64,000 bases of DNA from an uncultured Candidatus Saccharibacteria bacterium. GTDB taxonomy: Bacteria; Patescibacteriota; Doudnabacteria; UBA920. Position 1 is the stretch's first letter. The number at the start of each line of letters is the position of its first letter. This document shows positions 21,716 to 58,978 of the stretch, piece after piece. Location of the stretch: contig CAZEKH010000002.1 of NCBI GenBank assembly GCA_964512925.1, positions 57,831-121,830 of the forward strand. Direction: 5' to 3'. Both the position numbers and the translations under genes were made by a program. The notes beneath the pieces are model-generated. The model did not search any database and was not told where the DNA came from. It saw nothing but the letters and a program-made list of their open reading frames with translations.

Positions 21716-23344
21716 CTAACTCTCAGTTATATCTGGAGAGATCGCATAGTGGTCGAGTGCGCTCGCTTGGAAAGCGAGTAAACCTTTACCGGTTTCGGGG
21801 GTTCGAATCCCCCTCTCTCCGCCAGATTTCCAAGTTTGAACCGAAGTGTTTGCAAGGCTTTTTGAGCCTTTAGACGGCTTCGGAGGTTCGATCTTGGAGA
21901 CTTGCAAGTCCATAAGAACATCAAAGACTGGCGTCCATATCGGCGTCAGTTTTTGATTCCTGACGACAAAACCCTCAAAGCAAAGCTTCATCAATGTACG
22001 CTTTTGGTGCAAACCACTCGTCTGGAATACTCTATCCGCATGATCAGTGAAGTCCAAAAGCTCGTTGAACTTTTGAACAAACTTGTCCGACTTTCCCTCG
22101 AGCTCTCCCAAGCGATCCTGATACATCTCTTTCTCTCGCAAGAGCTCGTCCTGAATCTTTATAAATACATCTGCGTCAATGATGCGTTTTGAACGATCCA
22201 CCACGATATTGCGGATCTGTTGCTGAAGCCTTATAAGCTCTTGCTTGAGACTTTTTCTCTCTTTATCCTCCTGATCCAAACGCTCTTTAGCGAAATATTG
22301 AAAATAAGAATCAAGTACCTTTTTGAATTTATCTGGAAGCTGTACTCGTCCGAGCATTACTGCAACCTGCGCCTCGACATCCTCCCAGCGCATATATTTC
22401 TTTTCTACACACTTGGGGTCTTTACGATGACTGCACGAATAATATAGATGGCCTTTTTGCATTTGACCACAAAGCATTGATCCGCAGTCACCACACCTCA
22501 TAAAACCAGCCATTGGATACGAGTGCTTTCGTGTGCGGTCGGCGTAGTGATTATGTTGCTCGATAATTTCTTGAACATCATCAAAAAGTTTTTTGGTTAC
22601 AAGAGGAGGAAAATTTGCCTGAGAAGTTGCTGAGCGAGTTTTAATAAGACCGTAATAGAGTGAATTTGCCAGTATATGCTCAAGAGTCTTACGGCCGACC
22701 AATTTGCCACTGCGAGTCTTTAAACCACGTTTATTGAGCTCTGCTGACAGAGATTCGTAGGAATACTTGCCGGAAGCATAAAGCTCAAAAGCCAACTTTA
22801 TATACGGAGCTCGAATATTATCGATTATAAGCGACTTAGACTTCTTATCATTTAAATAGCCTAAAGGTGCCACTCCCGGAAACCTGCCACGTTCTACAGC
22901 CTCTTTAAGACCTTTCTTGACCTCCCAGCTGATGTTCTGAGATGTCCATTGAGCGATTGACGACATGATGTTTTCAACAAGCTCACCGGAAAAGGATTCA
23001 TCAAATTGCTCGACTACTGAGATAAGGCGGACGTCATGCTTCTTTAGCATCATCTTGATAGCCGCGTAGTCGGCGACGTTACGGCACATACGGTCAAGCT
23101 TGTGGATTAGGATAACATCAACTTTATTGTCGGTCTTTGCTCGATGAAGCATTTTTTGAATCTGTGGACGTTCAACGGTTCGAGCTGATTCACCTTTTTC
23201 TTCATAAACGCCATCTGGTAGTAGATTCCAATGGTGATCCATGCCGTATTTTTGGCATGCTTTGACCTGTGCAGGAATACTCAATTCTCGTTCGGCCTGA
23301 CGAGAGGTAGAGACACGGCCGTAAATTAAATAATTTGTGCTCAT
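21716..23344 (-). CDS. large serine recombinase (phage integrase); annotated 3' end reads through tRNA-Ser
   Basis: N-terminal resolvase catalytic motif (LIYGRVSTSRQ), recombinase domain, Cys-rich zinc ribbon (CGDCGSMLCG...YYSCSHRK) and coiled coil. The last ~35 codons are antisense to the tRNA. Confidence 0.85.
   Translation of the reverse strand: MSTNYLIYGRVSTSRQAERELSIPAQVKACQKYGMDHHWNLLPDGVYEEKGESARTVERPQIQKMLHRAKTDNKVDVILIHKLDRMCRNVADYAAIKMMLKKHDVRLISVVEQFDESFSGELVENIMSSIAQWTSQNISWEVKKGLKEAVERGRFPGVAPLGYLNDKKSKSLIIDNIRAPYIKLAFELYASGKYSYESLSAELNKRGLKTRSGKLVGRKTLEHILANSLYYGLIKTRSATSQANFPPLVTKKLFDDVQEIIEQHNHYADRTRKHSYPMAGFMRCGDCGSMLCGQMQKGHLYYSCSHRKDPKCVEKKYMRWEDVEAQVAVMLGRVQLPDKFKKVLDSYFQYFAKERLDQEDKERKSLKQELIRLQQQIRNIVVDRSKRIIDADVFIKIQDELLREKEMYQDRLGELEGKSDKFVQKFNELLDFTDHADRVFQTSGLHQKRTLMKLCFEGFVVRNQKLTPIWTPVFDVLMDLQVSKIEPPKPSKGSKSLANTSVQTWKSGGERGIRTPETGKGLLAFQASALDHYAISPDITES
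21735..21824 (+). tRNA. tRNA-Ser (anticodon GGA), type II with long variable arm, CCA encoded
   Basis: Hand-folded: acceptor GGAGAGA/TCTCTCC, 3-bp D stem, anticodon stem CTCGC/GCGAG with loop TTGGAAA, variable arm AAACC..GGTTT, T-arm GGGGG-TTCGAAT-CCCCC, G-CCA. Confidence 0.85.
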
Positions 23345-23395: not shown

Positions 23396-24121
23396 TTAGT
23401 ATTTTTTTAAGTGATAAATTAGCCGACCTATTATCTTGCTCTCCGTGAGACGATAGGTTTTTTTGAAGCCTTCCTTCTCCGGCCGGAGTTCCAAATGATC
23501 TCCTCGTTCGAAATAGTGGGTCATGATTATTCCGTCTGGAGTACCCACTATTGTGATATCGCCGTTCTTCGGCGGCTGGTCGGCATCAAGGATTATAAAG
23601 TCGCCGGAAAGAATGCCTGCGTCCGGCAGATCAAGATCGGTGACTCGGATTCCGAACACCCGATGCTCAACTGGAAAGTTTTCGTGCGGTAGCATGACGA
23701 ACTCGTTGGTCATGCTCAGATGATCATCGAGATTGTCTATCGGAATCGCCACGAGCACCGGCAGTTTAAAATGTCCTTCGACCGAAAAAGTATTTTTCAA
23801 ATCTTCCAACCCCTGTTCCAATTTGGCGGTTGCCTCATGCATCCGCTTCTCGCCGACATCTTTCATGTTGAACTTATAGTTGGTGTCCATGCTGACCTTG
23901 AGGATCTTGGCCTCGGTCCAACGTTTCTTCAAATCGGCCTCCGGCAGATCATAAGCCGTGGCCAAAATCGACATTTGCTTTGCTGACGGGACACGTGTCC
24001 CGTTCTCCAGCTGGCTGACATAGCTCGACGAAAAGCCGAGCCGCTCGGCTACCTCCTTGATCGTCCGACCACTGGTCTCACGTTTTTGTCTCAGATACGA
24101 ACCAAATGACATAAATGGCAT
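23396..24121 (-). CDS. CI-like repressor (XRE HTH + S24 LexA-like peptidase domain)
   Basis: N-terminal HTH (TIKEVAERLGFSSSYVSQLENG). C-terminal S24-like region (GDFIILD...GDITIV). Confidence 0.8.
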   Translation of the reverse strand: MPFMSFGSYLRQKRETSGRTIKEVAERLGFSSSYVSQLENGTRVPSAKQMSILATAYDLPEADLKKRWTEAKILKVSMDTNYKFNMKDVGEKRMHEATAKLEQGLEDLKNTFSVEGHFKLPVLVAIPIDNLDDHLSMTNEFVMLPHENFPVEHRVFGIRVTDLDLPDAGILSGDFIILDADQPPKNGDITIVGTPDGIIMTHYFERGDHLELRPEKEGFKKTYRLTESKIIGRLIYHLKKY

Positions 24122-29759: not shown

Positions 29760-30092
29760 TCAATTTTGAAAAATATAAATCAAATTATTCCTGAAAATAA
29801 AAACAAGGACAATGAAAAATAAGGTCCCCAACAAGGAAATCTTTGAGTAATTATCGGCATGAGTTTTGCCGCCAATCAGAATATAGGTGAGCTCGTCAAC
29901 AAACAAGCCGAGACCTATAGCGAATACCAGCACGGAATGAATAAGTAAACCCACCACTATCCCGAGGAGTCCAAACATGTAATGGTGCGTTCTGAATTTT
30001 CCGATCGTCGGTGCTGGTATTGGGCGTAGAAAAAGAAATAAACGAGTAGCCAAAATAGTTATCAAAAAAGTAAAAAAGAAGTAGATATTCAT
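29760..30092 (-). CDS. small polytopic membrane protein
   Basis: 110 aa with about 3 TM helices. ATGA-type overlap with the upstream SET-domain gene. Confidence 0.45.
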   Translation of the reverse strand: MNIYFFFTFLITILATRLFLFLRPIPAPTIGKFRTHHYMFGLLGIVVGLLIHSVLVFAIGLGLFVDELTYILIGGKTHADNYSKISLLGTLFFIVLVFIFRNNLIYIFQN

Positions 30093-30469
30093 TTTATTTC
30101 TCGGTGCTGGTCGATGTCGCCGTAAAAATCTTTATAATTCACAATCAATTCTTCTCCCGACTGTATGTCTCTCATTGCTGTCGTTATATCATCCATCCTC
30201 TCGTCGCAATTTGGATTGTCGGAATGATTGAAAAAACGAGCATCATCAGAACATAGTAAATACTTACTGTGCTTTTTATCAAGATATGCGTAATTGTAAA
30301 ACTGTTCTTTTGCCGGTCCAGATAGCTTTTTGATCTCTTCTTCCGTCATTAGGAGATCAAACCCCGGCATAAACTTCCAGACAGCAGTTCCTTTTGGAAT
30401 AAATTGATCAGCAAATAGACCTATACCCTGAATCTTACTTGGTGCAATTTTTGTTTTTACGCATAGCAT
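30089..30469 (-). CDS. minimal SET-domain protein (putative protein-lysine methyltransferase)
   Basis: GIGLFA...IPKGT (N-SET GxG), RFFNHSDNPNC (the NHSCxPN SAM/pseudoknot motif), GEELIVNY (ELxxxY). Size is about that of viral vSET. Confidence 0.75.
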   Translation of the reverse strand: MLCVKTKIAPSKIQGIGLFADQFIPKGTAVWKFMPGFDLLMTEEEIKKLSGPAKEQFYNYAYLDKKHSKYLLCSDDARFFNHSDNPNCDERMDDITTAMRDIQSGEELIVNYKDFYGDIDQHREIK

Positions 30470-30478
30470 AAATTTCTT

Positions 30479-33463
30479 TTACGATCTTATATATTTCTCG
30501 TCTCTAATATCGAAAGCCGGCAATGTACCCTCAAGTACATCGGAAGCCTTTTTATTTATATCGCAATTCTCGATACTGCCGAATGTATATCTGATCTGAT
30601 TTTTCTGTTTATTCATCGAGGCGGCGATGATCTGTTCAGCATCACAGACGATAGCCAAGTTGGGATTGTGGGTAACAATGATAACCTGTCTTTTTAGTTT
30701 TGCTTTCCGGATATACGGCACCAAAAGTTCAAAAATCGACTCGTTGTCGAGATTTTCCTCCGGCTGATCCATAATTAAAGGTCCACGGTCTTTATCGATC
30801 AGCAAGTAGAAAATCAAGAGAAGGGCACCCTTTTCACCCGGAGAGAACTCGTTGCTGTTCAAGTCCTTGCCGTTGAATAAAACTTTATATTTAACATCGA
30901 GATAATCTAAACCAAAGACGTAATCGTAGAATGAGACATTGTCACCCTTCAGTTGAGAGCAGATCGTGTTCTGTTTTTCTGGGGTCTTTGTCTTGTCGCT
31001 CGTAAGGTGATCGATCAATTCCTGCCTGAACGCCTTGACTCCGATAGGATTTGAAAAATCAGCTTTCTCGATAACCTTGCCGAGTATCTTTTGCCCGTTA
31101 TCGGCATACTGAAAGCTTCCATCACGACCCTGATTTATGAACCCTAAGAATTTAGCTGGGAATGATGCCTTGTCGAATACAATGCCTGCATCGAACTCGA
31201 GCATGCTACCCGTTTTCTGTTGCGTTTCTTTTTCTGACTCGATGAATTTTTGGAGAGGCATATAAACCTCTTTGTAAAATTCGCTTTTTTGTTGAAGTCC
31301 GGAATATAGCTTGTCGGACAGACCATCTCTGCTTACCATCGCCGCCTTCAGATCGGCATGAATTTTTTTATCAAGGTATTTTATTTCAGCCTCAATTGAT
31401 TTGATGGTCTCAAAAGTTTGATCATCGGCCGTTCCTTCAATCTCTTTTTTGCGCTCATTGTATTCCTTGAGTTTGTCTTGATAGGTCGAATATTTTCTCT
31501 GATCCTCACCAAGAACATCGATCAGTTTTTTCTTTTGACCTTCCAGCTCCAATTTCTTAGCATACAAACTGGTAGACGAAGTTCCGTTCTGATCAAGAAG
31601 TACGGTCAGCTTATCTCTTTTTGTGGTGAGCTTACTTTCTGTCGATTCAAGGATTTTGCTATGGACTGTTACCGTAAATAATTTTGTAAGGTCGATCGAA
31701 AGAAGTTTTGCGTCATCCGCAAAATCTCTTGAAATACTATCTGCACTTTGGGAGAGACGTTCAACTGCCGCCTTTAATTTTCCGAGTTTCAGGATCTTAT
31801 CGTTTACCGATTTGAGCGTGGCTTTTGTAGTATCTATTCTTGTTGAGACGGTCCCGATCTCGGTGGTTATTTTTGCGAGTTTATCTTGATCGCTTTTCTT
31901 GGGCTGTTTTTTGGGAGCCTGCACAGCTTTCGGCTTGGCCAGACTATTTAGTTCCTGCTGTTTGGCTTTGAGTTTGTTGCTCAGTGTTTCAAGATACTTA
32001 GGCAGTAGTTTATTTTCTAATTTTACGATCTCCTCGTTGGACAGATGTAAATCATTCTTGATCTGAGTGAGATTGCCATCGATTGTCGAGGTCTTGATGC
32101 GGATAAGGTCTTCAAGTGTAGTCGCTCCAAGTCGGCTCTCATCGGGGATATAAGAAAAAATAACTTTGTCTACTTCTCTCTGAAACTGGGTACTGACACC
32201 ATCTTCGTTGCATATCGTCTCAACGTATTTCTGCGGTAGATATTTAACTTTCTCAACTTCGGCCGGATTAACTTCGGCATCAAGATTTTCGGTGACTGAC
32301 GTCTTATCCAGCCAAGTCAAAACCGCCTCGTAATTTTTGGCGAGTCCTTTCTTTCTGAATTTGTCCTTATTAAGAAAGGAGAAATCCTTCGGTGCTATTT
32401 TGGTTCTTCCACAAAGAGCGATGATGTCATTCAGAGCACTTTTGCCTTGACCCTTTCTGCCTATGATCGCTACCAGTCCGGGGTTTAAGGGTATATCATC
32501 GTTGAACCAACCGGAGACTTGTTTGCCATCTGTATTACGGACATTTATAGATTCGATGAATCTCGAACTATTTGATTCAACGTCCATCAATTTATCCGGT
32601 TTGTCACCAAAGAATGTTCGTTCTCTCGGTTCGTGAGTAATCTGCCGCAAACCCTCGAAAGTTTTGTCTGCTTTTATCCAAGTCGGATAAGTGTGCCTGC
32701 CTTCATTTAAAAACGTCTTGCCGACCTTATCATCAAAATCTTTGAAAGAGTGTGCGTCGCTCCCTGAAACACACGGTTTTTTCTTTTTTACCTCGCCGCG
32801 ATCATTAAGGAAAAATTCTCTGTCCTTATCGTCACAGCCAAAGTAAATATCCGCCACTCGTTTGTCAGTTTCTTCGGCGACTGCGTTTTTTCTTGAATTA
32901 TTTTTTTCCGGTTGGAGACCTCCATGACCATGAGCCATTAGTATTCTAAAATAGGGCTTCTTGTCTCCAAAGGTATCCTTAAGAGCCTCGTCGATGAGCG
33001 GAATTGTTGTAAAGGCAGTTTTGAAATCACTGTCGGTTTTAAGCTCGTTCGCCTTTTTCTTCTTGCCGTTTCCGTCCGTATTTTCCAACTTCAAATTGGA
33101 CAAGAAGCTCTGCAAATCTTTGTCGGGTAGTTCATTGTTAAAAATAAGATGCAGATCATAGCCCTCATTGTGACTATTGGACGAACGATCGACTCGCAAT
33201 TCTACATTTGGGAAAAACACCTTTTCGGATTTTGGATATTTGGCTTGAAATTTCTTTTTGAATTCCAGATAATTCTCGACTGAAAAATAATCGGTAATGC
33301 CGAAAACTTCCACGTCTGATCGCTCAACCTTGTCGCAGAATTCAGCCCAGACATCACCGCCGTTGGCCAGGGCGTATCCGTTGTTTAATTTGGTAAAAGG
33401 CACGTGGAGATGTAAATCCCACTTTCGCCATTCTGAACCTTTTGGATAAGCTAAATTGCCCAT
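30479..33463 (-). CDS. PHP-domain + SMC/ABC-type ATPase fusion protein (architecture of the Ppl defence protein)
   Basis: PHP motifs DLHLH, GITDY, PNVELRV, GSDAHS. Walker A GRKGQGKSAL, about 350-aa coiled coil, signature FSPGEKGALL, Walker B LIMDQPEENLD, H-loop VTHNP. Confidence 0.75.
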   Translation of the reverse strand: MGNLAYPKGSEWRKWDLHLHVPFTKLNNGYALANGGDVWAEFCDKVERSDVEVFGITDYFSVENYLEFKKKFQAKYPKSEKVFFPNVELRVDRSSNSHNEGYDLHLIFNNELPDKDLQSFLSNLKLENTDGNGKKKKANELKTDSDFKTAFTTIPLIDEALKDTFGDKKPYFRILMAHGHGGLQPEKNNSRKNAVAEETDKRVADIYFGCDDKDREFFLNDRGEVKKKKPCVSGSDAHSFKDFDDKVGKTFLNEGRHTYPTWIKADKTFEGLRQITHEPRERTFFGDKPDKLMDVESNSSRFIESINVRNTDGKQVSGWFNDDIPLNPGLVAIIGRKGQGKSALNDIIALCGRTKIAPKDFSFLNKDKFRKKGLAKNYEAVLTWLDKTSVTENLDAEVNPAEVEKVKYLPQKYVETICNEDGVSTQFQREVDKVIFSYIPDESRLGATTLEDLIRIKTSTIDGNLTQIKNDLHLSNEEIVKLENKLLPKYLETLSNKLKAKQQELNSLAKPKAVQAPKKQPKKSDQDKLAKITTEIGTVSTRIDTTKATLKSVNDKILKLGKLKAAVERLSQSADSISRDFADDAKLLSIDLTKLFTVTVHSKILESTESKLTTKRDKLTVLLDQNGTSSTSLYAKKLELEGQKKKLIDVLGEDQRKYSTYQDKLKEYNERKKEIEGTADDQTFETIKSIEAEIKYLDKKIHADLKAAMVSRDGLSDKLYSGLQQKSEFYKEVYMPLQKFIESEKETQQKTGSMLEFDAGIVFDKASFPAKFLGFINQGRDGSFQYADNGQKILGKVIEKADFSNPIGVKAFRQELIDHLTSDKTKTPEKQNTICSQLKGDNVSFYDYVFGLDYLDVKYKVLFNGKDLNSNEFSPGEKGALLLIFYLLIDKDRGPLIMDQPEENLDNESIFELLVPYIRKAKLKRQVIIVTHNPNLAIVCDAEQIIAASMNKQKNQIRYTFGSIENCDINKKASDVLEGTLPAFDIRDEKYIRS

Positions 33464-33580
33464 ATTTACCAGTAAACTAAACTAATGTTTATAAATGCAT
33501 TATATCCCTCTTGACTTCATTTTGTCAATAATATACACTGGAAATAAGGAAATATAGACATTCCAGCGAACAAAACCACT

Positions 33581-34150
33581 ATGGACAGCTTAATTGCAAA
33601 ATTATATCAGTCAAATAAGACAATCCTGACCACCAAGGATCTGGCTTTGATTTGGGAGGAAAACGACAAACTGAAGTTAAACGTTAAAGCCGGATATTAC
33701 GTTAGACAGGGTGCATTGATCCGCCTGACCAGAGGCGTTTTTGCTAAGGATAAAAACTTCAATTCAAAGGAACTGGCGACCAGTCTCTATACTCCCTCCT
33801 ACATCAGCTTTGAAACGGTCTTGAGAGAATCCGGTGTTATCTTCCAGCACTACGATACAACCTTCGTTGCCGCCCAGCACCCGAAAACGGTAACGATCGA
33901 TAAATACACCTTCATCTTCAGAAAGCTGAAGGATGCTGTGCTGTTCAATACCACGGGAATAATAAACAAGGATAACTACAGCATCGCCACTCCGGAGAGA
34001 GCCTTCTTGGACATGATTTATCTGTCGCCGAATTACTACTTCGACAATCTGAAAGGGATCAACTGGGAAAAGTGTGAGGAGATCGTGAAAATTTACGATA
34101 ACAAGCAATTAATCAAGAGGTTGAATAAGTATAAGAAAAATTCTCAATAA
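33581..34150 (+). CDS. AbiEi-family antitoxin/transcriptional regulator (type IV TA)
   Basis: N-terminal wHTH-like segment. Size and pattern resemble AbiEi. Immediately precedes an AbiEii-type NTase. Confidence 0.6.
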   Translation: MDSLIAKLYQSNKTILTTKDLALIWEENDKLKLNVKAGYYVRQGALIRLTRGVFAKDKNFNSKELATSLYTPSYISFETVLRESGVIFQHYDTTFVAAQHPKTVTIDKYTFIFRKLKDAVLFNTTGIINKDNYSIATPERAFLDMIYLSPNYYFDNLKGINWEKCEEIVKIYDNKQLIKRLNKYKKNSQ

Positions 34151-34154
34151 AAAT

Positions 34155-34868
34155 ATGTTGAATAAAGAAAAGCATCAGTTAATAATGGGTCAGGTTTTGA
34201 AAGACATCTATACCGATGTCTCGATTAGTCCGCTCTTGGGTTTCAAAGGCGGCACCTGTGCTTACTTTTTCTATAACCTGCCGAGATTCTCGGTGGACTT
34301 GGATTTTGATTTGCTGGAAGTGACCGAGGAAAACCAAAAGATGGTTTTTGAAAAGATTGTCGCTATTTTAAGCAAGTACGGGACAATCAAGGATCAGTAC
34401 ATCAAGAGGTTTACAGTTTTTGCATTACTCTCCTACGGCGACGAGGATCACAATGTCAAAGTTGAGATCAATGTCCGCAAGCTGGCGGAAAATATAAAAG
34501 ACCTTTACGAGATGAAGGAATATCTGGGTATTTCAATGTTGGCGGCCAAGAAAGATTATTTGTTCGCTGGCAAATTGGCGGCTTTGACTTTGAGAACCGA
34601 AACAGCCATGAGAGACATTTTTGATATCCAGTATTTTGCCAAGAATCACTGGGATATCAATGCTGAAGTCATAAAGAATTTTACCGGGAAAACCGTCAAA
34701 GAATATCTGCCGGATTGCATCGCCTTTATCGAGAAAACCAAAGACAGCCAAATGTTGCAGGGGTTGGGAGAGCTGATTGATAGCGAGAAGCAGAAAGACT
34801 GGGTCCGAAATCACCTGAAAGCGGATGCTATCTTTATGCTGAAAAATTACCAATCTGTATTAAAATAA
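34155..34868 (+). CDS. AbiEii/AbiGii-family nucleotidyltransferase toxin
   Basis: NTase motif GGTCAYFFYNLPRFSVDLDFD (GS...DxD) and DUF1814-like C-terminal region. Confidence 0.75.
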   Translation: MLNKEKHQLIMGQVLKDIYTDVSISPLLGFKGGTCAYFFYNLPRFSVDLDFDLLEVTEENQKMVFEKIVAILSKYGTIKDQYIKRFTVFALLSYGDEDHNVKVEINVRKLAENIKDLYEMKEYLGISMLAAKKDYLFAGKLAALTLRTETAMRDIFDIQYFAKNHWDINAEVIKNFTGKTVKEYLPDCIAFIEKTKDSQMLQGLGELIDSEKQKDWVRNHLKADAIFMLKNYQSVLK

Positions 34869-34875
34869 AAACATT

Positions 34876-35358
34876 ATGGACAAAGAAAAAGACAAACGAT
34901 ACCTAAAGAAGTTCGAGATCGTCGAAACCGAAGTCGAACTTCCGATCCAAGGCCAAGTCCGTGATCCGGAAGACCTGTATAAGTTCCTCAAAGATTTGGA
35001 AAGTGAAAGTGTTTCCAAGGTTATAGGAATTTACCTCGATGACAAAAACCTCTTCCTCGGACACCAAGTATTCCTCGGCATGTCACCGCAGATTTTTGAT
35101 ACGCAACTCCTATACCACTACTACGCCCTCTTTCTGGCCAAGAAGTTTATGATCCTGATAAACCACCCGAACTCTGATGATCCGACTCCGGATGATGCTG
35201 ACAAGAAGCTGATCCGGGCCCTGCAAGCCGATGCTCAAGTGCTCTCGTTTAAACCTTTCTTTGCTGATTTTATTATCGTGGCAGGACGGTCATATTTCAG
35301 TATGGCCACAAACGACGGCACTGCTGGTCATGTGCATCAAAAGCATATACCGGAGTAA
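34876..35358 (+). CDS. RadC-like JAB/MPN-domain protein
   Basis: INHPNSDDPTPDDAD matches the RadC HNHPSGxPxPSxxD metal-binding motif. Confidence 0.65.
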   Translation: MDKEKDKRYLKKFEIVETEVELPIQGQVRDPEDLYKFLKDLESESVSKVIGIYLDDKNLFLGHQVFLGMSPQIFDTQLLYHYYALFLAKKFMILINHPNSDDPTPDDADKKLIRALQADAQVLSFKPFFADFIIVAGRSYFSMATNDGTAGHVHQKHIPE

Positions 35359-35508
35359 GCTCTTTTTCCCCACTTTTCTGCTAAAATAGCTGAACAACTG
35401 AATAAAGGCCTAAACCCGGTCCCGGGCATGGTCGCAAAACCATCCAACTGTCCTCGCAAAGGATTTTTCCGTGCATGTTGCGGAAGATGGTTTTGCGAGG
35501 ATTTTGTT

Positions 35509-36558
35509 TTACTCATGAATCCAATACCAGCACTGGTTTTTAAGGTCTTGGCTCAGTTGGTAGGTGTGAGCATGAGAAAGCGCACCCAAGTACGACTGAA
35601 GCGACTGAAATAAAGAATGTTCGTCGATCTCGCCTCGACGAAATTGCATCACTCGGTATTTAAGTTTACGAAATATTCTATGTTTCGTTTTGCTTCTAAG
35701 TAACCGATAGTGTGGCAGAATCACGTATCCCAAAAAATCTACTCCTTGGCCAACGTCAAGAATTGAACATTTCGTGGGATGCAAAGATAGCTTCAATTTG
35801 TCCCCGATAAATTTCTGGAACGAAATGATGAGGCTATCCAGATATTCTTTGTCTGTCGATACAACTATAAAGTCGTCGGTGTAGCGCGCGTAATGTTTGA
35901 CTTTTAAGTCATGCTTAACGAATTGGTCGAATTCGTTCATGTAGACATTGGCAAACAATTGCGAAGTAAGATTGCCGATCGGAAGACCGTGACGATCAAA
36001 AAGTGTCGTTTGGCCGGCCGCAAAGCTTCTGACAATCTGCTCCAATAGCCACATGGTGTCCGGATCAGCAAGTCGTTTTCTGAGAATTGCCAAAAGAATT
36101 TCGTGATCGATCGAATCGAAAAACTTTCGCACATCGCATTTGAGAGCAAAACAAGGCCTTGTATAGTTTTGGCTCTCTTTCCGGATCATGCTCTCGGCCG
36201 CCAACACTCCCTTGTGCGTCCCTTTGCCAACCCGGCATGAAAATGAATTGGCAATAAAGGTCTTCTCAAAAATAGGATTCAGGATTCGGAAAACCGCATG
36301 GTGCAAGACTCGATCTCGCACCATAGCCTTGTGAATGTGGCGAACTTTCGGATCGCAAATGTAAAAACTTGCATACGGTCCATGGGAATAACGCTTGGTA
36401 ATCAAGTCGTGATGCAAAGGGAAAAGATTTTGCTCAAGCGAAAACTCGAAAGCCTGAACATCAGCCTTCTTGCCCTTATCGCTTCGGAACTGCTCCCATG
36501 CCTTAACAATATTTTCCAGCGATGTGATCTGATTGAATAAATCCTTATAAATCTTCAT
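35509..36558 (-). CDS. diversity-generating retroelement reverse transcriptase
   Basis: RT motifs 1-7 including GLPIGNLTSQLFANVY (the I/LGxxxSQ form typical of DGR RTs) and YTDDFIV (YxDD). Start set at MKIYKDLF... (an upstream ATG is possible). Confidence 0.85.
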   Translation of the reverse strand: MKIYKDLFNQITSLENIVKAWEQFRSDKGKKADVQAFEFSLEQNLFPLHHDLITKRYSHGPYASFYICDPKVRHIHKAMVRDRVLHHAVFRILNPIFEKTFIANSFSCRVGKGTHKGVLAAESMIRKESQNYTRPCFALKCDVRKFFDSIDHEILLAILRKRLADPDTMWLLEQIVRSFAAGQTTLFDRHGLPIGNLTSQLFANVYMNEFDQFVKHDLKVKHYARYTDDFIVVSTDKEYLDSLIISFQKFIGDKLKLSLHPTKCSILDVGQGVDFLGYVILPHYRLLRSKTKHRIFRKLKYRVMQFRRGEIDEHSLFQSLQSYLGALSHAHTYQLSQDLKNQCWYWIHE

Positions 36559-36562
36559 AACT

Positions 36563-36913
36563 ATGAATGACTTTGATATTCCCATCTTCAAGAAAGCGTA
36601 CGATCTGTTCAAACTCTTTCATGAATACAGAAGGGTTGTGCCAAAACAAGATCGGTTCACGATTTTTGAACGGTGCGAACAGCTAATTCTTGACGTAATT
36701 GAAAGCATCCTGCAAGCAAGCAGTGAGCAAAAGCAGGTAAAAGTTCCAACACTGGAACGATGCAGTCTAAAACTTAACATGCTCCGGGTCTTTATCCGAC
36801 TAATGAAAGACATTAGAGCGATCGACTCAAAAAAGTATGTAGCATTAGAAAGTGTCGTGGACGAAATCGGCCGAATGCTCGGTGGCTGGATTCGGTCAAC
36901 TAAATCCTGTTAA
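36563..36913 (+). CDS. avd: DGR accessory variability determinant (Avd-like four-helix-bundle protein)
   Basis: 116 aa. The C-terminus VDEIGRMLGGWIRSTKS resembles Bordetella phage bAvd (IAEVGRILGSWIARVNRKG). Start is 5 nt from the RT start on the opposite strand. Confidence 0.7.
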   Translation: MNDFDIPIFKKAYDLFKLFHEYRRVVPKQDRFTIFERCEQLILDVIESILQASSEQKQVKVPTLERCSLKLNMLRVFIRLMKDIRAIDSKKYVALESVVDEIGRMLGGWIRSTKSC

Positions 36914-36959
36914 TAGAAAGGGCATCCGTTTTTCGGATGCCCTTTCTTGTTGTAGAGAG

Positions 36960-37090
36960 ACTTCGAGAGGAAGGCTGAAGCGGAACCGTAGTTCTCGTTG
37001 GCATCGTCGAACCACTTGGTGTCGAACTTGACCCCGTCGTCGTCGAAGTTGAAGATCGGGGCGTTCGAGAAATCGCCATCGGCATCCGGA
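36960..37090 (-). repeat. DGR template repeat (TR), 131 bp
   Basis: Reverse complement aligns base-for-base with 38311..38441. The 9 mismatches are all adenines in this copy. It carries AAC codons where VR varies. Confidence 0.85.
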
Positions 37091-37558
37091 ATATTGTCCC
37101 CATCCATCCGTGTCACCGAGCTTTGAGCTTTACTTCCCGTTGGAAACGGAACTATGAGCTCTTAGCTTTGAACTTAATTTGACAGTATTTACCTCACGGC
37201 AAAACCTGTACCAGACGAGGGCAAGCAGTATCCCATCAACACAACACGCTCATAGAAGCCGTAGCCTCCATGACTCTGGTTGCTATCGTTGAAACGATAG
37301 AGTTCGGCGACAGCAATCCTTGAATGGCTGTACATTAGCCTATACTCAAGCCTATTATACCCCAAAGAGATTGCCGCCTCAAACGCCTTGACAAAACGCA
37401 TTAAATTTGTTAAGGTGAAGCGTCTGAATAGTTCTTTGTTATTTGGCTTATTTATGAGGTAGCGCATTGGGCGTAATTGCGTTTTTGTGCCTATTGCGCT
37501 ACCTCACACAGAGGAAAGCCGTTTGCCAGAGCGACTCTGGTAAATTCAAATTAGGAGG

Positions 37559-38443
37559 TTGACGATGACGACACAATCGATCACGTCCATCACAGACGGT
37601 CAGAGAAAGCAGTACAAACGGTTCGTTGAGGACGCCGCAGACAAAGCGCTTGCGGAAGTCGGACTCGACAAGGACGGAATTCAGAAGCTCATCGAAAAGG
37701 GCGATGAATTCCAGTCACGGATCGTGGAGGCAGTCCGGGAACTTTCCGTGAACGATGAGTTTGCGGACGAGGAAGTTGAATCGAACTATGAATACCCGGG
37801 TGTCTACAAGGTCAGGGCTGTCGCTGAACAAGTGGCAACGTTGCGCGAGGTCTTTCCGGAACTCAAGGACGCCACATTCGACGAAAGCATCGCCGCGAGG
37901 CCGCTTCCCCCGAACGCCGAAGGATGGTTCGCCATCCCCAGGTGGGAAAAGCTTGCTTCTGTCTACGGCGAAGCCGTCGACAAGATGCTTGCGACCATGA
38001 GGTCCGAACGCCGCCGATTCCAAAACTATTGTGAGGATCGGACGGGCGAGGAATACCTGCGCCAGCATGCCAAGACGGTCAAAGCGTTCCAGAAGCTCAT
38101 CGACGAGCAGAAAGGACACGACATTCTGATCGTTCCGTGCCAGTTCGGTCTCCGTCACCGCGGACGCTCGGTTCGCCGGGCCCACGAAGTGATGAACGCC
38201 GCAGAGTTCGGTCTCGGCGCATTCGCTGTCGGGTGTATGCTACTGACACATCCCGAACGGCTCCAAGCCTACGAGAACCTGTTTGTCGACTGCGCCGGAG
38301 ACGAATACTCTCCGGCTGCCGATGGCGATTTCTCGCACGCCCCGCTCTTCCGCTTCGACGACGACGGGGTCGAGTTCGACACCCAGTGGTTCGACGATGC
38401 CAACGAGAGCTACGGTTCCGCTTCAGCCTTCCTCTCGCAGTAA
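37559..38443 (+). CDS. DGR target (variable) protein, 294 aa, no signal peptide, VR at C-terminus
   Basis: RBS AGGAGG. The C-terminal 44 aa (ADGDFSHAPLFRFDDDGVEFDTQWFDDANESYGSASAFLSQ) is encoded by VR. TR encodes ...SNAPIFNFDDDGVKFDTKW...ENYGS... Confidence 0.75.
   Translation: MTMTTQSITSITDGQRKQYKRFVEDAADKALAEVGLDKDGIQKLIEKGDEFQSRIVEAVRELSVNDEFADEEVESNYEYPGVYKVRAVAEQVATLREVFPELKDATFDESIAARPLPPNAEGWFAIPRWEKLASVYGEAVDKMLATMRSERRRFQNYCEDRTGEEYLRQHAKTVKAFQKLIDEQKGHDILIVPCQFGLRHRGRSVRRAHEVMNAAEFGLGAFAVGCMLLTHPERLQAYENLFVDCAGDEYSPAADGDFSHAPLFRFDDDGVEFDTQWFDDANESYGSASAFLSQ
38311..38441 (+). repeat. DGR variable repeat (VR), 131 bp, ending at the target gene stop
   Basis: 122/131 identity to TR. 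All 9 differences (A>C x6, A>G x3) are at TR adenines. A GC hairpin CCGCCGCAGGCGG lies 50 bp downstream. Confidence 0.85.
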
Positions 38444-56119: not shown

Positions 56120-58978
56120 ATGGCTTACATCAAAGACCCCACAACTGGAAAATACATACGAACCGACTCAGTGCCGGCGGCTAAACCGATCGTGCCTATA
56201 AAAACATCTGTGCCAGGTTCTTCCGGATCAGTAATGAAGTACGGTAAAGATTCCAGCGGAAAATACACGATGATGCCGAGCGACTCCTCCACTCCTGCCG
56301 GTAAACCGAAAGTGACAACGCTGGCCGGACTCCAAGATTACGCTACCTCGCAAGGCATCGACGTGTCACAATCACAGCCGAAAGAATCTCTCCTGCAACG
56401 ACTCCTCCACTTACTGAACACTGGTGCGTATGCCGTGGGAGGAGTTATCAGCGGAAAAGGAATTATAAAAGGCATTCAGGAACACACTCTGCCATCCGAA
56501 GCTCTTGGCATAAAAAATCCAATCGGCGGATTTATTGCCGACGTGTTGCTTGATCCGACAACGTACATCACGTTCGGCTACGGGGCCGAAGCGAAACTTG
56601 CTACCAAAGCCGGTGAAGTGGCATTGAGCAAAGCCGGAACGACTCTCCTCAAGGATTCAATCTTAAAGCTCGGGGAGGAAGCCGGACGAAAAGCCATGGC
56701 CACCAAAGTGCTTGAGGAGGGCGGCGAAAAGTTCTTGGCCAAAGATGGTCTCAAATTCATGGGCAAACAGATACTGCCTCGAGCTGTTGTGACCGCACCA
56801 TTCAGAGCCGCCGATACGATCGTCGAGAAAACTCCGGTTGTCGGCAAACTTTACCAAGGCGCAAAAGATTTGGCCGGAAAAGCATTCGTACCGTTTAAGT
56901 CCATCAAAGACCTGCCGGGAGGCATCGGACAAGAATATCTCGATAAATTTACTGCCTTCAGCAAAGGAACCAGAGCTGAAGTGAGTAAGGCTGTCGAGGA
57001 AGCGGCAACACTTGGCAAGAGTGCCAAAAAGGAACTCGGAAAAGACGCCGGTTCGTTTGTCGGAAAAACAATCGAGGAAATGGCCACCGGAAAACCTGCC
57101 GAGGCAGTTGCGACGGCCGCGAATATAGCAGAGACAGCTGTACCGAAAGCTGGTACTGGAAATAGTGTGATCGACAACATCATCGAAAACATCCGAGGCC
57201 AGCACAAGGACTTTGCCACCATTGAAAAAGAAAAAGGAATATTGGACACAGAGCTTCCGGATTATGTTCGGCACTATCTCACACCCGAGGGCCGTGACTT
57301 TTTGAATAAGACCGGCATGAATATCACTGCGGAATTAAACAAACCGCTTCGAGTCAAAAATCCGTTCTCAAAAACCAGACAACTCGACGGCACCATTGAG
57401 GGAATTAACAAATACTTCCAAGGCAGATACGGAGTCCAATTGTTTGAACCCGATGCGTTCAAAGCCTTTGCCGCACGTAAAGCCGAACACATCAAGGCCG
57501 TGAACACCTACGACTTTATAACCGATGTTGGAAAGCAGTTCGGCAAACAAGCAGAGGCGGTCACCAAAGAAATAAAAAATCCGATCACCGGCAAGCTCAC
57601 CACTAAAGAAACAATAAAGCCGGTTTTTGAAAACGGCATCAAATACATCGAGAGTTCAGTACCTCAACTCAAAGGAACGCTTCTGCCCGAGCAGATCGTG
57701 AAGCACGTTGACGATACTTATAAAACGCTTACCAACGAGGAAGCAACAAAAAAGTTTATCGGACTCTACGACAAGGTGCTCGGATTTTGGAAAGGATCAG
57801 TTACCGGATGGTTTCCGTCTTTCCACACCCGAAATACCATGGGCGGTATTTTCAATAACTGGATCGCCGGAGTAAAGAGTCCTGCACGATATCTGCAAGC
57901 CGACCAAATCGCACGAGGTGTCGAGGGATCGATCACCACCAAACTTGGCACCAAATATACGTATGGCCAAATCCGTGAATTGGCCACTAAGCTCGGCGCA
58001 ATAGGCCAGCCCGGATATTTGGATGTGATGCGTGAGGTCGAAAAGGACATAGGCAAAGGTCCCGTTTCCAAGCTAATGGATCTGCCTAAAAATGCGATGG
58101 AGATCGTGGAAAACCGACTGCGATTGCCGCTGTTCGTAGATCGCCTGATCAAAGGCGATGCACCAGAGCAAGCCGCAAAACAAGTCTTCCAATTCCACTT
58201 CGACTATGCACCCGAAGCCCTGACCGGCTTTGAGCAGAATGTCATGAAGCGACTGTTGCCGTTCTACCGATGGACAAGAGGCAATATTCCGCTTCAGCTC
58301 GAGCAGATGGTTAAACAGCCAGGCAAGTACGGCGCAATCGGAAAATTTATCGGGAACATCAGTAGCGACAAACAGAAAGCCAAAGAGGAATTCCCGTCAC
58401 TGCCGCCTTACATGCGAGAAGGACTGCCGATCAGACTCGGTGAGAAAAACGGCATTGCCCAATACCTCTATGGTCTGGGACTGCCGGTTGAGGACGTAAA
58501 TCGCATTTATAAAGAGAGTCCACAGAGAACACTCGCCAGTTTCGTCGGCGAACTTTCTCCACTGCTCAAATATCCGATTGAGGTCGGTACCGGACAAAAC
58601 CTCTTCACCGGTGAACCGATCACTCAAAGCAACAACGTCTATCCGTTCGTGAATAAAATCCCCGGACTGCGTGACTGGCTCGGAGTAACCGAACATAAGA
58701 ATAAAGACGGATCGGTGAGCTACCGAGGTGATGCTTATAAGCTTCACTTCCTGAACACCGCTCTTGGGAGGTTTTATACCACGGCCGGAAAACTTACTGA
58801 CGACAACACGTCTGCGGCCGTGAAATTCCTCTACGGCCTGATCGGGGCCAAAGCGAAATCGGTAGACATCGAAAAAGAAAAGTTCTACCGACAGCAAGAT
58901 GTCCGAGCACGATTGGAACAACAGCTGGAAAACAAGGGGTTGATCAATAAGTTTGAGAGCGTCTACGTTCCGAAATAA
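56120..58978 (+). CDS. large (952 aa) virion protein, hypothetical
   Basis: Gly/Lys/Ala-rich N-terminal half. No catalytic motif recognised. Position is before the lysis genes. Confidence 0.45.
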   Translation: MAYIKDPTTGKYIRTDSVPAAKPIVPIKTSVPGSSGSVMKYGKDSSGKYTMMPSDSSTPAGKPKVTTLAGLQDYATSQGIDVSQSQPKESLLQRLLHLLNTGAYAVGGVISGKGIIKGIQEHTLPSEALGIKNPIGGFIADVLLDPTTYITFGYGAEAKLATKAGEVALSKAGTTLLKDSILKLGEEAGRKAMATKVLEEGGEKFLAKDGLKFMGKQILPRAVVTAPFRAADTIVEKTPVVGKLYQGAKDLAGKAFVPFKSIKDLPGGIGQEYLDKFTAFSKGTRAEVSKAVEEAATLGKSAKKELGKDAGSFVGKTIEEMATGKPAEAVATAANIAETAVPKAGTGNSVIDNIIENIRGQHKDFATIEKEKGILDTELPDYVRHYLTPEGRDFLNKTGMNITAELNKPLRVKNPFSKTRQLDGTIEGINKYFQGRYGVQLFEPDAFKAFAARKAEHIKAVNTYDFITDVGKQFGKQAEAVTKEIKNPITGKLTTKETIKPVFENGIKYIESSVPQLKGTLLPEQIVKHVDDTYKTLTNEEATKKFIGLYDKVLGFWKGSVTGWFPSFHTRNTMGGIFNNWIAGVKSPARYLQADQIARGVEGSITTKLGTKYTYGQIRELATKLGAIGQPGYLDVMREVEKDIGKGPVSKLMDLPKNAMEIVENRLRLPLFVDRLIKGDAPEQAAKQVFQFHFDYAPEALTGFEQNVMKRLLPFYRWTRGNIPLQLEQMVKQPGKYGAIGKFIGNISSDKQKAKEEFPSLPPYMREGLPIRLGEKNGIAQYLYGLGLPVEDVNRIYKESPQRTLASFVGELSPLLKYPIEVGTGQNLFTGEPITQSNNVYPFVNKIPGLRDWLGVTEHKNKDGSVSYRGDAYKLHFLNTALGRFYTTAGKLTDDNTSAAVKFLYGLIGAKAKSVDIEKEKFYRQQDVRARLEQQLENKGLINKFESVYVPK

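Follow-up and report, generated by a model that had tools for sequence, protein, structure and literature searches.

Three co-oriented genes in a prophage of a Patescibacteria genome, encoding an AbiEi-like protein, an AbiEii-like protein and a RadC-like JAB protein, raise the question of whether they form a single defence unit, or whether a complete AbiE pair lies beside an independent gene. They are located in a stretch of 64,000 nucleotides (here called the window; positions 57,831 to 121,830 of contig CAZEKH010000002.1, assembly GCA_964512925.1) from an uncultured Candidatus Saccharibacteria bacterium. An initial annotation, made from the sequence, had described a toxin-antitoxin (TA) or abortive-infection (Abi) pair that is followed by a RadC-like gene and belongs to a defence island of the prophage. 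We find that the locus is a further member of the AbiE family inside a Patescibacteria prophage defence hotspot, for which the annotation is correct and essentially ordinary. It is likely that the AbiE pair is a self-contained cassette acquired by a temperate phage, and that the RadC-like gene is a separate module of the site where defence genes are swapped.

The AbiE pair and its cassette

The genes in question are the following:

33581-34150, plus strand: abiEi, 189 amino acids
34155-34868, plus strand: abiEii, 237 amino acids
34876-35358, plus strand: RadC-like JAB gene, 160 amino acids

The three open reading frames (ORFs) are arranged as the initial annotation had claimed, and the two strings that it quoted, KGGTCAYFFYNLPRFSVDLDFD and INHPNSDDPTPDDAD, are both found in the translations of the window. 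A gap of 4 nt separates abiEi from abiEii, and 7 nt lie between the stop codon of abiEii and the ATG of the RadC-like gene; the spacing of 8 nt given earlier is the count to the A of that ATG.

AbiEii scores above threshold with the Pfam family PF08843 (DUF1814; 2.8e-16, 60.6 bits, cut-off 22.5) and matches the PADLOC model PDLC02324 over residues 3-234 (7.2e-68). The only sequence matches in the PDB are 4o8s/4ok0 (1e-6). When the translation is read against the Streptococcus agalactiae protein (PMC3985639), the nucleotidyltransferase (NTase) motifs I-IV are all kept, as G32-G33, R44...D48-L-D50, KLAALTLR and RDIFD. The mutational map in that study reports that the S. agalactiae motifs hG[GS], R..DhD, KLxAaxxR and +DxxD are all needed for toxicity (PMC3985639). 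With its toxin motifs intact, the AbiE module looks functional.

A 2026 preprint describes AbiEi of S. agalactiae as binding AbiEii and triggering its auto-phosphorylation on T65, two residues ahead of the first catalytic Asp; it also finds the NTase activity to be pyrimidine-specific and places AbiE in type VII. The earlier description of the locus as a TA/Abi pair holds, but because of this reclassification its label 'type IV' is dated. In the window protein, the residues R44-F-S46-V-D48 are spaced like R63-x-T65-x-D67 of S. agalactiae, which is a positional match only, and Ser46 is the predicted phospho-acceptor equivalent to T65.

For the upstream protein, PADLOC gives matches to sixteen models of AbiEi, of which the best (PDLC02255, 4e-59) spans the full length. 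A profile built from 41 homologues aligns in hhalign with the AbiEi of a related locus, L010 (97.2% probability, E 4.7e-11, 175 columns), which itself passes PF13338 (30.4 bits) and is located upstream of a PF08843 toxin. The gene order is constant as well: among 80 metagenomic loci with an AbiEii 71-97% identical to that of the window, AbiEi lies directly upstream in all 68 for which sequence is available. On the strength of the PADLOC matches, the alignment to a PF13338-positive AbiEi and this synteny, we accept ORF 33581-34150 as a COG5340-type AbiEi antitoxin and putative autorepressor. Together with PF08843 and the PADLOC match of the toxin, these results bear out the AbiEi/AbiEii pair of the initial annotation.

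The extent of the module follows from a blastn comparison of the region with 127 related loci, which divides it into four homology blocks:

about 33510-34876: AbiE cassette
34885-35358: RadC module
from 35374: module of a diversity-generating retroelement (DGR)
from about 38811: phage methylase backbone

Homology of the cassette starts exactly at the TTGAC of a -35 element and stops ahead of the RadC-like gene. Two elements are located in the upstream region, the first found by consensus scan and the second by alignment of related loci:

33511-33539, plus strand: promoter-like site of abiE, with -35 TTGACT (33511-33516), a 17-nt spacer and -10 TACACT (33534-33539)
33538-33566: candidate operator for AbiEi, a palindrome (cTGGAA-N17-TTCCAg) that overlaps both the -10 and the expected start of transcription

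In the upstream regions of 61 distinct abiE loci the TTGAC and the -10 block are conserved (family consensus -10 TACAAT), and we infer that TTGACT-17-TACACT is the abiE promoter. With this putative promoter of its own, the AbiE pair is a self-contained cassette. The two arms of the palindrome pair in 78.5% of the cells in 41 aligned loci, versus 30-55% in slid controls, and changes on both sides occur in 7 of 10 pairs; none of 500 shuffles reached the observed score. When the intergenic region was searched generically for inverted repeats, just a weak 18-nt pair came up, and the palindrome surfaced only in the multi-locus alignment. AbiEi of S. agalactiae is reported to bind inverted repeats at its promoter and to exert negative autoregulation (PMC3985639). 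Since the palindrome in the window covers the -10 and the expected start site, we read it as a candidate AbiEi operator analogous to the S. agalactiae repeats, to which AbiEi would bind.

The pair resembles the AbiE systems of S. agalactiae and Lactococcus lactis, as well as MenAT (DUF1814/COG2253 toxin, COG5340 antitoxin), in being bicistronic with the antitoxin gene first, in combining PF08843 and motifs I-IV with a Ser/Thr two residues ahead of the first catalytic Asp, in the similar size of the antitoxin, and in having an inverted repeat at the promoter. It differs from them in several respects: similarity to the characterised proteins is at the level of motifs, Gly and Asp in AbiEii are spaced by 14 residues instead of about 15-16, the palindrome covers the -10 and start site and not the -35, and the host is a prophage of the candidate phyla radiation (CPR).

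By homology to S. agalactiae AbiE and Mycobacterium tuberculosis MenAT, the following mechanism can be proposed. AbiEi would repress the operon through the palindrome and hold the DUF1814 nucleotidyltransferase AbiEii inactive, as in a classical type IV system; alternatively, following the 2026 preprint, it would induce auto-phosphorylation of AbiEii, here predicted on Ser46. Loss of AbiEi control, for example when another phage infects, would allow AbiEii to add nucleotides to tRNA 3' ends, and this modification would stop translation and abort the infection. The module may also stabilise the prophage.

The RadC-like gene

As the initial annotation had it, the gene downstream of abiEii encodes a RadC-like JAB protein (PF04002, 6.9e-9, 36.1 bits, cut-off 22.1). 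Its sole sequence match in the PDB is RadC from Chlorobium (2QLC, E 2.9e-4), and the top Foldseek matches of its AlphaFold2 model are all 2QLC chains (E 2e-8, TM 0.73). The model has a mean predicted local distance difference test score (pLDDT) of 67, with values of 70-89 in the core, residues 40-140.

The active site is degenerate. When the JAMM motif E...HxH...S..D is aligned with 2QLC, the Glu is replaced by Lys48, the first His by Ile95 and the Ser by Asp, and the motif as a whole is absent. Only His97 and Asp109 are kept, both invariant; Lys48 is likewise invariant in 41 members of the family, and position 95 is I/L/V/T among the relatives. The JAB motif quoted by the initial annotation is thus present, but as a degenerate JAMM in which neither the first His nor the catalytic Glu survives. 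Searched exhaustively, a set of 1.84 billion representatives gave only 135 relatives at E<=1e-3. The nearest of these (38-50% identity) also lack the first His, two of them lack both Glu and first His, and more distant ones retain HNHPSG and the Glu. Because close relatives are degenerate too while distant ones keep these residues, the clade appears to be small and derived, and its members are probable pseudo-enzymes. The protein is probably not a metallo-hydrolase. With the catalytic Glu gone, as well as the first His of the zinc site, it most likely acts by binding nucleic acid or a partner protein rather than by hydrolysis; our preference is for a binding protein that either belongs to the phage backbone or modulates adjacent toxins.

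Identity with the chromosomal DNA-repair RadC (YicR) was considered and rejected: the protein has 160 residues, has no helix-hairpin-helix (HhH) region and stays well under the NCBIfam cut-offs (TIGR00608, 35.1 bits versus 133.85; NF000642, 30.4 versus 180), covering only the C-terminal JAB part of these models. It shares with RadC/YicR the JAB/deaminase-like fold and the NHP...D core with H97 and D109, and differs in lacking the N-terminal HhH, in having Lys for Glu and Ile/Leu/Val/Thr for the first His across the subfamily, and in a conserved N-terminal peptide of its own. This peptide, RYLKKFEIVET.VELPIQGQV.DPEDLY (residues 1-32, window 34876-34971), is nearly invariant across the family and predicted to be disordered (pLDDT <40). 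At the C-terminus, many homologues have a DGTAC(H/R)CGHQEY motif, which the window copy has lost (AGHVHQKH). Short RadC-like genes of phages and conjugative elements have the same solo form as the window protein. In cryptic prophages of Escherichia coli, the RadC-like genes YeeS, YkfG and YfjY adjoin CbtA/CbeA toxin-antitoxin pairs, without a demonstrated functional link. The likeness to our locus is that of a small RadC-like gene beside a prophage TA pair; the differences are that CbtA is a cytoskeleton inhibitor and that RadC is located upstream there.

The surroundings of the gene in other genomes are known mostly from genome and metagenome scans, while a scan of IMG/VR with the RadC protein contributed one locus. 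Homologues in the prophage family are 63-93% identical, and all come from Patescibacteria metagenome-assembled genomes (MAGs). What precedes RadC is a Fic protein of ~355 residues (Pfam Fic 1.4e-15, PADLOC SoFic 1.3e-43) in 19 loci, at a distance of 19-40 nt, and AbiEii in 8, at 5-8 nt; there is some redundancy among the loci. A different AbiE subfamily lies downstream in three loci. RadC is accompanied by neither Fic nor AbiE in two contexts, one with helix-turn-helix (HTH) and insertion-sequence (IS) genes and one with PrgI/TraC type IV secretion genes. The gaps from RadC to downstream cargo measure 2-15 nt.

Seen from the side of AbiE, RadC lies directly downstream in only 13 of 63 close AbiE cassettes, and in 3 of those 13 it is a fragment. 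Furthermore, DNA homology breaks exactly between abiEii and the RadC-like gene, and loci that have RadC only match 34885-35358 in blastn. We therefore reject RadC as an obligate partner of AbiE and conclude from the same two observations that, on the available sequences, the RadC-like gene is not part of AbiE but a separate conserved gene that appears to anchor the defence-gene swap site of the prophage. For the defence island of the initial annotation this means that the accessory defence cargo stands, whereas the RadC-like gene belongs with the conserved genes of this phage family at the hotspot and not to AbiE.

We also observed that the AbiE cassettes of loci L048, L049, L041, L078 and L040 are trailed by a mere 57-63-codon RadC-like remnant (residues about 36-92 or about 3-65), suggesting that RadC has decayed or recombined internally where the cassettes join.

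The co-oriented genes, the 7-nt gap and the terminator-free junction could also mean that abiEi, abiEii and radC are one three-component unit, in which the RadC-like protein serves as an antitoxin-like modulator, sensor or adaptor for AbiEii or SoFic. Of 38 RadC loci, about 30 have Fic or AbiE next to RadC, among them the three with a different AbiE subfamily downstream, a small downstream antitoxin has been reported for SoFic of E. coli (PMC12249575), and the N-terminal peptide, highly conserved yet disordered, suggests a partner-binding segment. We nevertheless regard such a unit as improbable. Of the 63 close cassettes, 50 have no RadC, the homology break falls precisely at the abiEii/radC junction, RadC also occurs without either toxin, and in the characterised systems AbiEi already provides the antitoxin function. 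In addition, the associations between RadC and toxins are not independent, because all are drawn from one prophage family. We give equally little credence to the more specific proposal that the degenerate RadC-like protein is a dedicated third component of nucleotide-transferring toxins (SoFic in most sister loci, AbiEii here), acting through its N-terminal peptide as brake, infection sensor or target adaptor. If true, it would mean that tripartite Fic/AbiE-RadC systems exist in phages of ultra-small bacteria, and it would provide a first function for a RadC-type JAB domain.

Another explanation is that the RadC-like gene benefits the phage itself, in counter-defence or in DNA handling at entry or induction, instead of protecting the host, and that defence genes insert on either side of it. 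Such a role has been proposed for the RadC domains that conjugative elements carry. The level of conservation is comparable to that of core phage genes, and the type IV secretion context fits as well. Iyer and colleagues noted that RadC domains are frequent in mobile elements, that RadC-type JAB domains are tied to ArdC anti-restriction, primase and helicase fusions, and that forms without zinc ligands, being inactive, may be DNA-binding (PMC3239186, PMC5512222). On the other side, the gene is embedded in operons of defence genes with the short gaps to downstream cargo given above, a biochemical function is known for no RadC, and the degenerate site speaks against a nuclease or peptidase role. 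We consider a phage-benefit role possible, but on the unlikely side.

Several points weigh against the reading that we prefer, a self-contained AbiE cassette beside a separate RadC module. The spacing of 7 nt with no intervening terminator makes it probable that the RadC-like gene is co-transcribed with AbiE, and functional coupling is then possible. Of the two Pfam families that the initial annotation named as a check, PF08843 is matched by the toxin, whereas the antitoxin reaches only 14.8 bits with PF13338 (E 0.031, cut-off 25); it also stays under the cut-off of NCBIfam NF047376 (33.6 bits, 2.9e-8, cut-off 150), and none of 2010 AbiEi homologues carries a precomputed Pfam domain. The AlphaFold2 model of AbiEi, from 41 shallow homologues, is poor (pLDDT 54) and does not permit a comparison with PDB 6Y8Q; neither Foldseek with this poor model nor a profile search of PDB sequences found a match to AbiEi in the PDB. 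The palindrome need not be purely an operator for a protein, since it could in part form a hairpin in RNA or DNA. Finally, the predictions of toxicity and its neutralisation, of operator binding, of tRNA modification and of phage exclusion all come from homologues that have motif-level similarity only, and S. agalactiae AbiE expressed in E. coli protected against none of 32 coliphages. Because of that failure a defence role is not to be assumed, and we consider a defence phenotype of AbiE in this prophage plausible.

The prophage and its defence hotspot

The prophage that carries the locus is delimited by these genes:

21716-23344, minus strand: large serine recombinase, left side
23396-24121: cI-like repressor (HTH-S24), left side
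from 39096: methylase, ParB, terminase, portal, major capsid, tail/tail fibre and lysin genes, right side

The order in the window is host rpoD/dnaG, serine recombinase, repressor, early genes, accessory region, the methylase-to-lysin block, a Bro-N gene and host PPDK. The integrase and repressor are thus found at one end, the packaging, head and tail genes at the other, and host genes on both flanks, in agreement with the prophage location given by the initial annotation. The element is a temperate phage of roughly 40 kb, integrated beside tRNA-Ser/dnaG of a Patescibacteria (CPR) genome. Host RpoD is of Patescibacteria type, with the best named matches in Doudnabacteria (82-85%). Prophages of ~44 kb with methylases have been reported in Patescibacteria before (PMC12455944). 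The tRNA-Ser gene (GGA; 21735-21821, plus strand; found by ARAGORN and by Rfam with 58.9 bits) lies within the 3'-terminal part of the serine-recombinase ORF, and is either a candidate attachment site or a sign that the end of the integrase ORF is overcalled.

Many Patescibacteria genomes and one IMG/VR contig have the same set of phage genes, and sister prophages share 80-93% amino acid identity in methyltransferase, ParB, large terminase, portal and major capsid proteins. Phages with this level of identity in terminase, portal and capsid are present in MAGs labelled Saccharibacteria, Parcubacteria/Paceibacteria, Gottesmanbacteria, Kaiserbacteria and others, and the family also occurs in small genomes labelled 'Gammaproteobacteria' (loci L009, L010, L013, L023, L024, L026, L029, L045 and others). 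This spread reflects either an unusually broad host range or unreliable taxon labels or binning.

What varies among the sisters is the region between repressor and methylase, which measures from about 4 kb (L045) up to 15 kb (the window). Its cargo includes type I restriction-modification (RM) systems, type III Mod+Res, N6/N4 methylases, an OLD/AAA_15 ATPase, Dcm, TrlF, SoFic and a second AbiE subfamily. In the Fic-type loci RadC is directed away from the methylase and heads the cargo operon, whereas in the AbiE-type loci, including the window, it is directed toward the methylase and the cargo is divergent (TrlF here). From the loci compared, the region is a defence hotspot, with the RadC-like gene as its apparent constant element. 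According to our model, RadC would be a conserved prophage gene within the swap site, whose upstream slot would hold a SoFic-like Fic protein or AbiE, and whose downstream or opposite position would hold RM, TrlF or OLD-like cargo.

The arrangement resembles the P2/P4 hotspots (PMC9122126), where unrelated defence systems interchange at a fixed position of a temperate phage between conserved genes. It differs in the phage family and host phylum, and in that a conserved RadC-like gene is located inside the variable region, with variable slots on both sides. SoFic, a Fic-type AMPylating abortive-infection protein, takes the slot directly upstream of RadC in the 19 sister loci that AbiE takes in the window, and both are nucleotide-transferring toxins; SoFic is absent from the window and, unlike AbiE, consists of one gene, whose product has an internal inhibitory helix.

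This setting bears on the possibility that the AbiE pair is mainly an addiction or stabilisation module for the prophage or an accessory island, rather than a host defence against phages. AbiE is reported to stabilise plasmids (PMC3985639), the failure against coliphages points the same way, and the cassette is highly mobile, occurring in many contexts. We think it unlikely, if not strongly so, that stabilisation is the main role: the cassette is located among bona fide defence cargo (RM, SoFic, OLD-like, TrlF) at a hotspot with mutual replacement, L. lactis AbiE does give abortive infection, and the two roles are compatible.

The remaining genes and elements around the cassette are listed below, from left to right:

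30089-30469, minus strand: SET-domain protein, 126 amino acids (PF00856, 8.1e-16), immediately downstream of TrlF and in the same orientation
30479-33463, minus strand: TrlF-family protein with PHP and AAA/ABC-type ATPase domains, 994 amino acids, divergent from abiE
35465-35487, plus strand: terminator-like hairpin with T-rich tail, between the RadC-like gene and the convergent DGR reverse transcriptase (consensus scan only)
35509-38443: complete DGR, directly after the RadC-like gene
35509-36558, minus strand: DGR reverse transcriptase (RT)
36563-36913, plus strand: Avd
about 36935-37085, minus strand: DGR template repeat (TR)
37559-38443, plus strand: DGR target gene, with the variable repeat (VR) at about 38310-38443

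The 994-residue protein had been called Ppl-like, which applies to its architecture only, as it shares the large ATPase arrangement with an ABC/SMC-type C-terminus. It meets the NCBIfam model for TrlF over its full length (NF045780, 6e-190, 634 bits, cut-off 350), whereas Ppl is matched by the C-terminal 150 residues only (NF042955, 88.9 bits versus a cut-off of 1000) and the PADLOC Ppl model by the C-terminus only (8e-17). We therefore reject membership of Ppl and assign the protein to TrlF, a family of undefined mechanism whose name comes from a temperature-restriction locus of Photorhabdus. The minus strand of the abiE/TrlF intergenic region contains a perfect TTGACA-18-TATAAT (33528->33499, consensus scan) for the divergent TrlF gene. 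A small hydrophobic ORF of 110 residues follows the TrlF and SET genes in the same orientation, so that SET gene and ORF together span 29760-30469 on the minus strand. SET-domain methyltransferases are uncommon as phage cargo.

Further left, the segment 27198-29650 (minus strand) is GC-rich, with 56% versus about 40-45% in the flanks, and encodes a 664-residue AAA ATPase and a 153-residue protein without a family match. The ATPase has a Pfam AAA domain, and its PADLOC matches to IetA and TRIP13 are restricted to the AAA core; we dropped an IetA-like defence call because these matches cover the generic core only. The segment is possibly another acquired system.

To the right, the hairpin at 35465-35487 is a possible operon end, and it falls within the block of DGR homology beginning at 35374. 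The TR and RT of the DGR are located on the strand opposite to Avd and the target gene, with divergent RT and Avd starts ~4 nt apart, and every mismatch between TR and VR is at a TR adenine. The same layout is repeated in L017, L018 and L023. An Rfam LOOT RNA (RF03000; 38609-38732, plus strand; 78.8 bits, gathering threshold 46.4) lies past the DGR target gene and ahead of the phage methylase.

Significance of the locus

The core finding is ordinary, because AbiE is well known and the subfamily already has full-length PADLOC models. The cassette is now delimited to base level, and a conserved, covarying, operator-like palindrome has been identified upstream of it. Two by-products, the RadC-anchored defence hotspot and the clade of pseudo-JAB proteins, are modestly interesting. 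The latter is a tight RadC-like clade without the JAMM catalytic residues, strongly conserved and embedded among defence genes, and may offer a tractable way to approach what RadC-type JAB domains do, a long-standing question. Patescibacteria are often called poor in defence systems. The loci compared here indicate that they receive AbiE, SoFic, RM, TrlF and OLD-like systems via a single, widespread family of prophages in which the swap site is defined.

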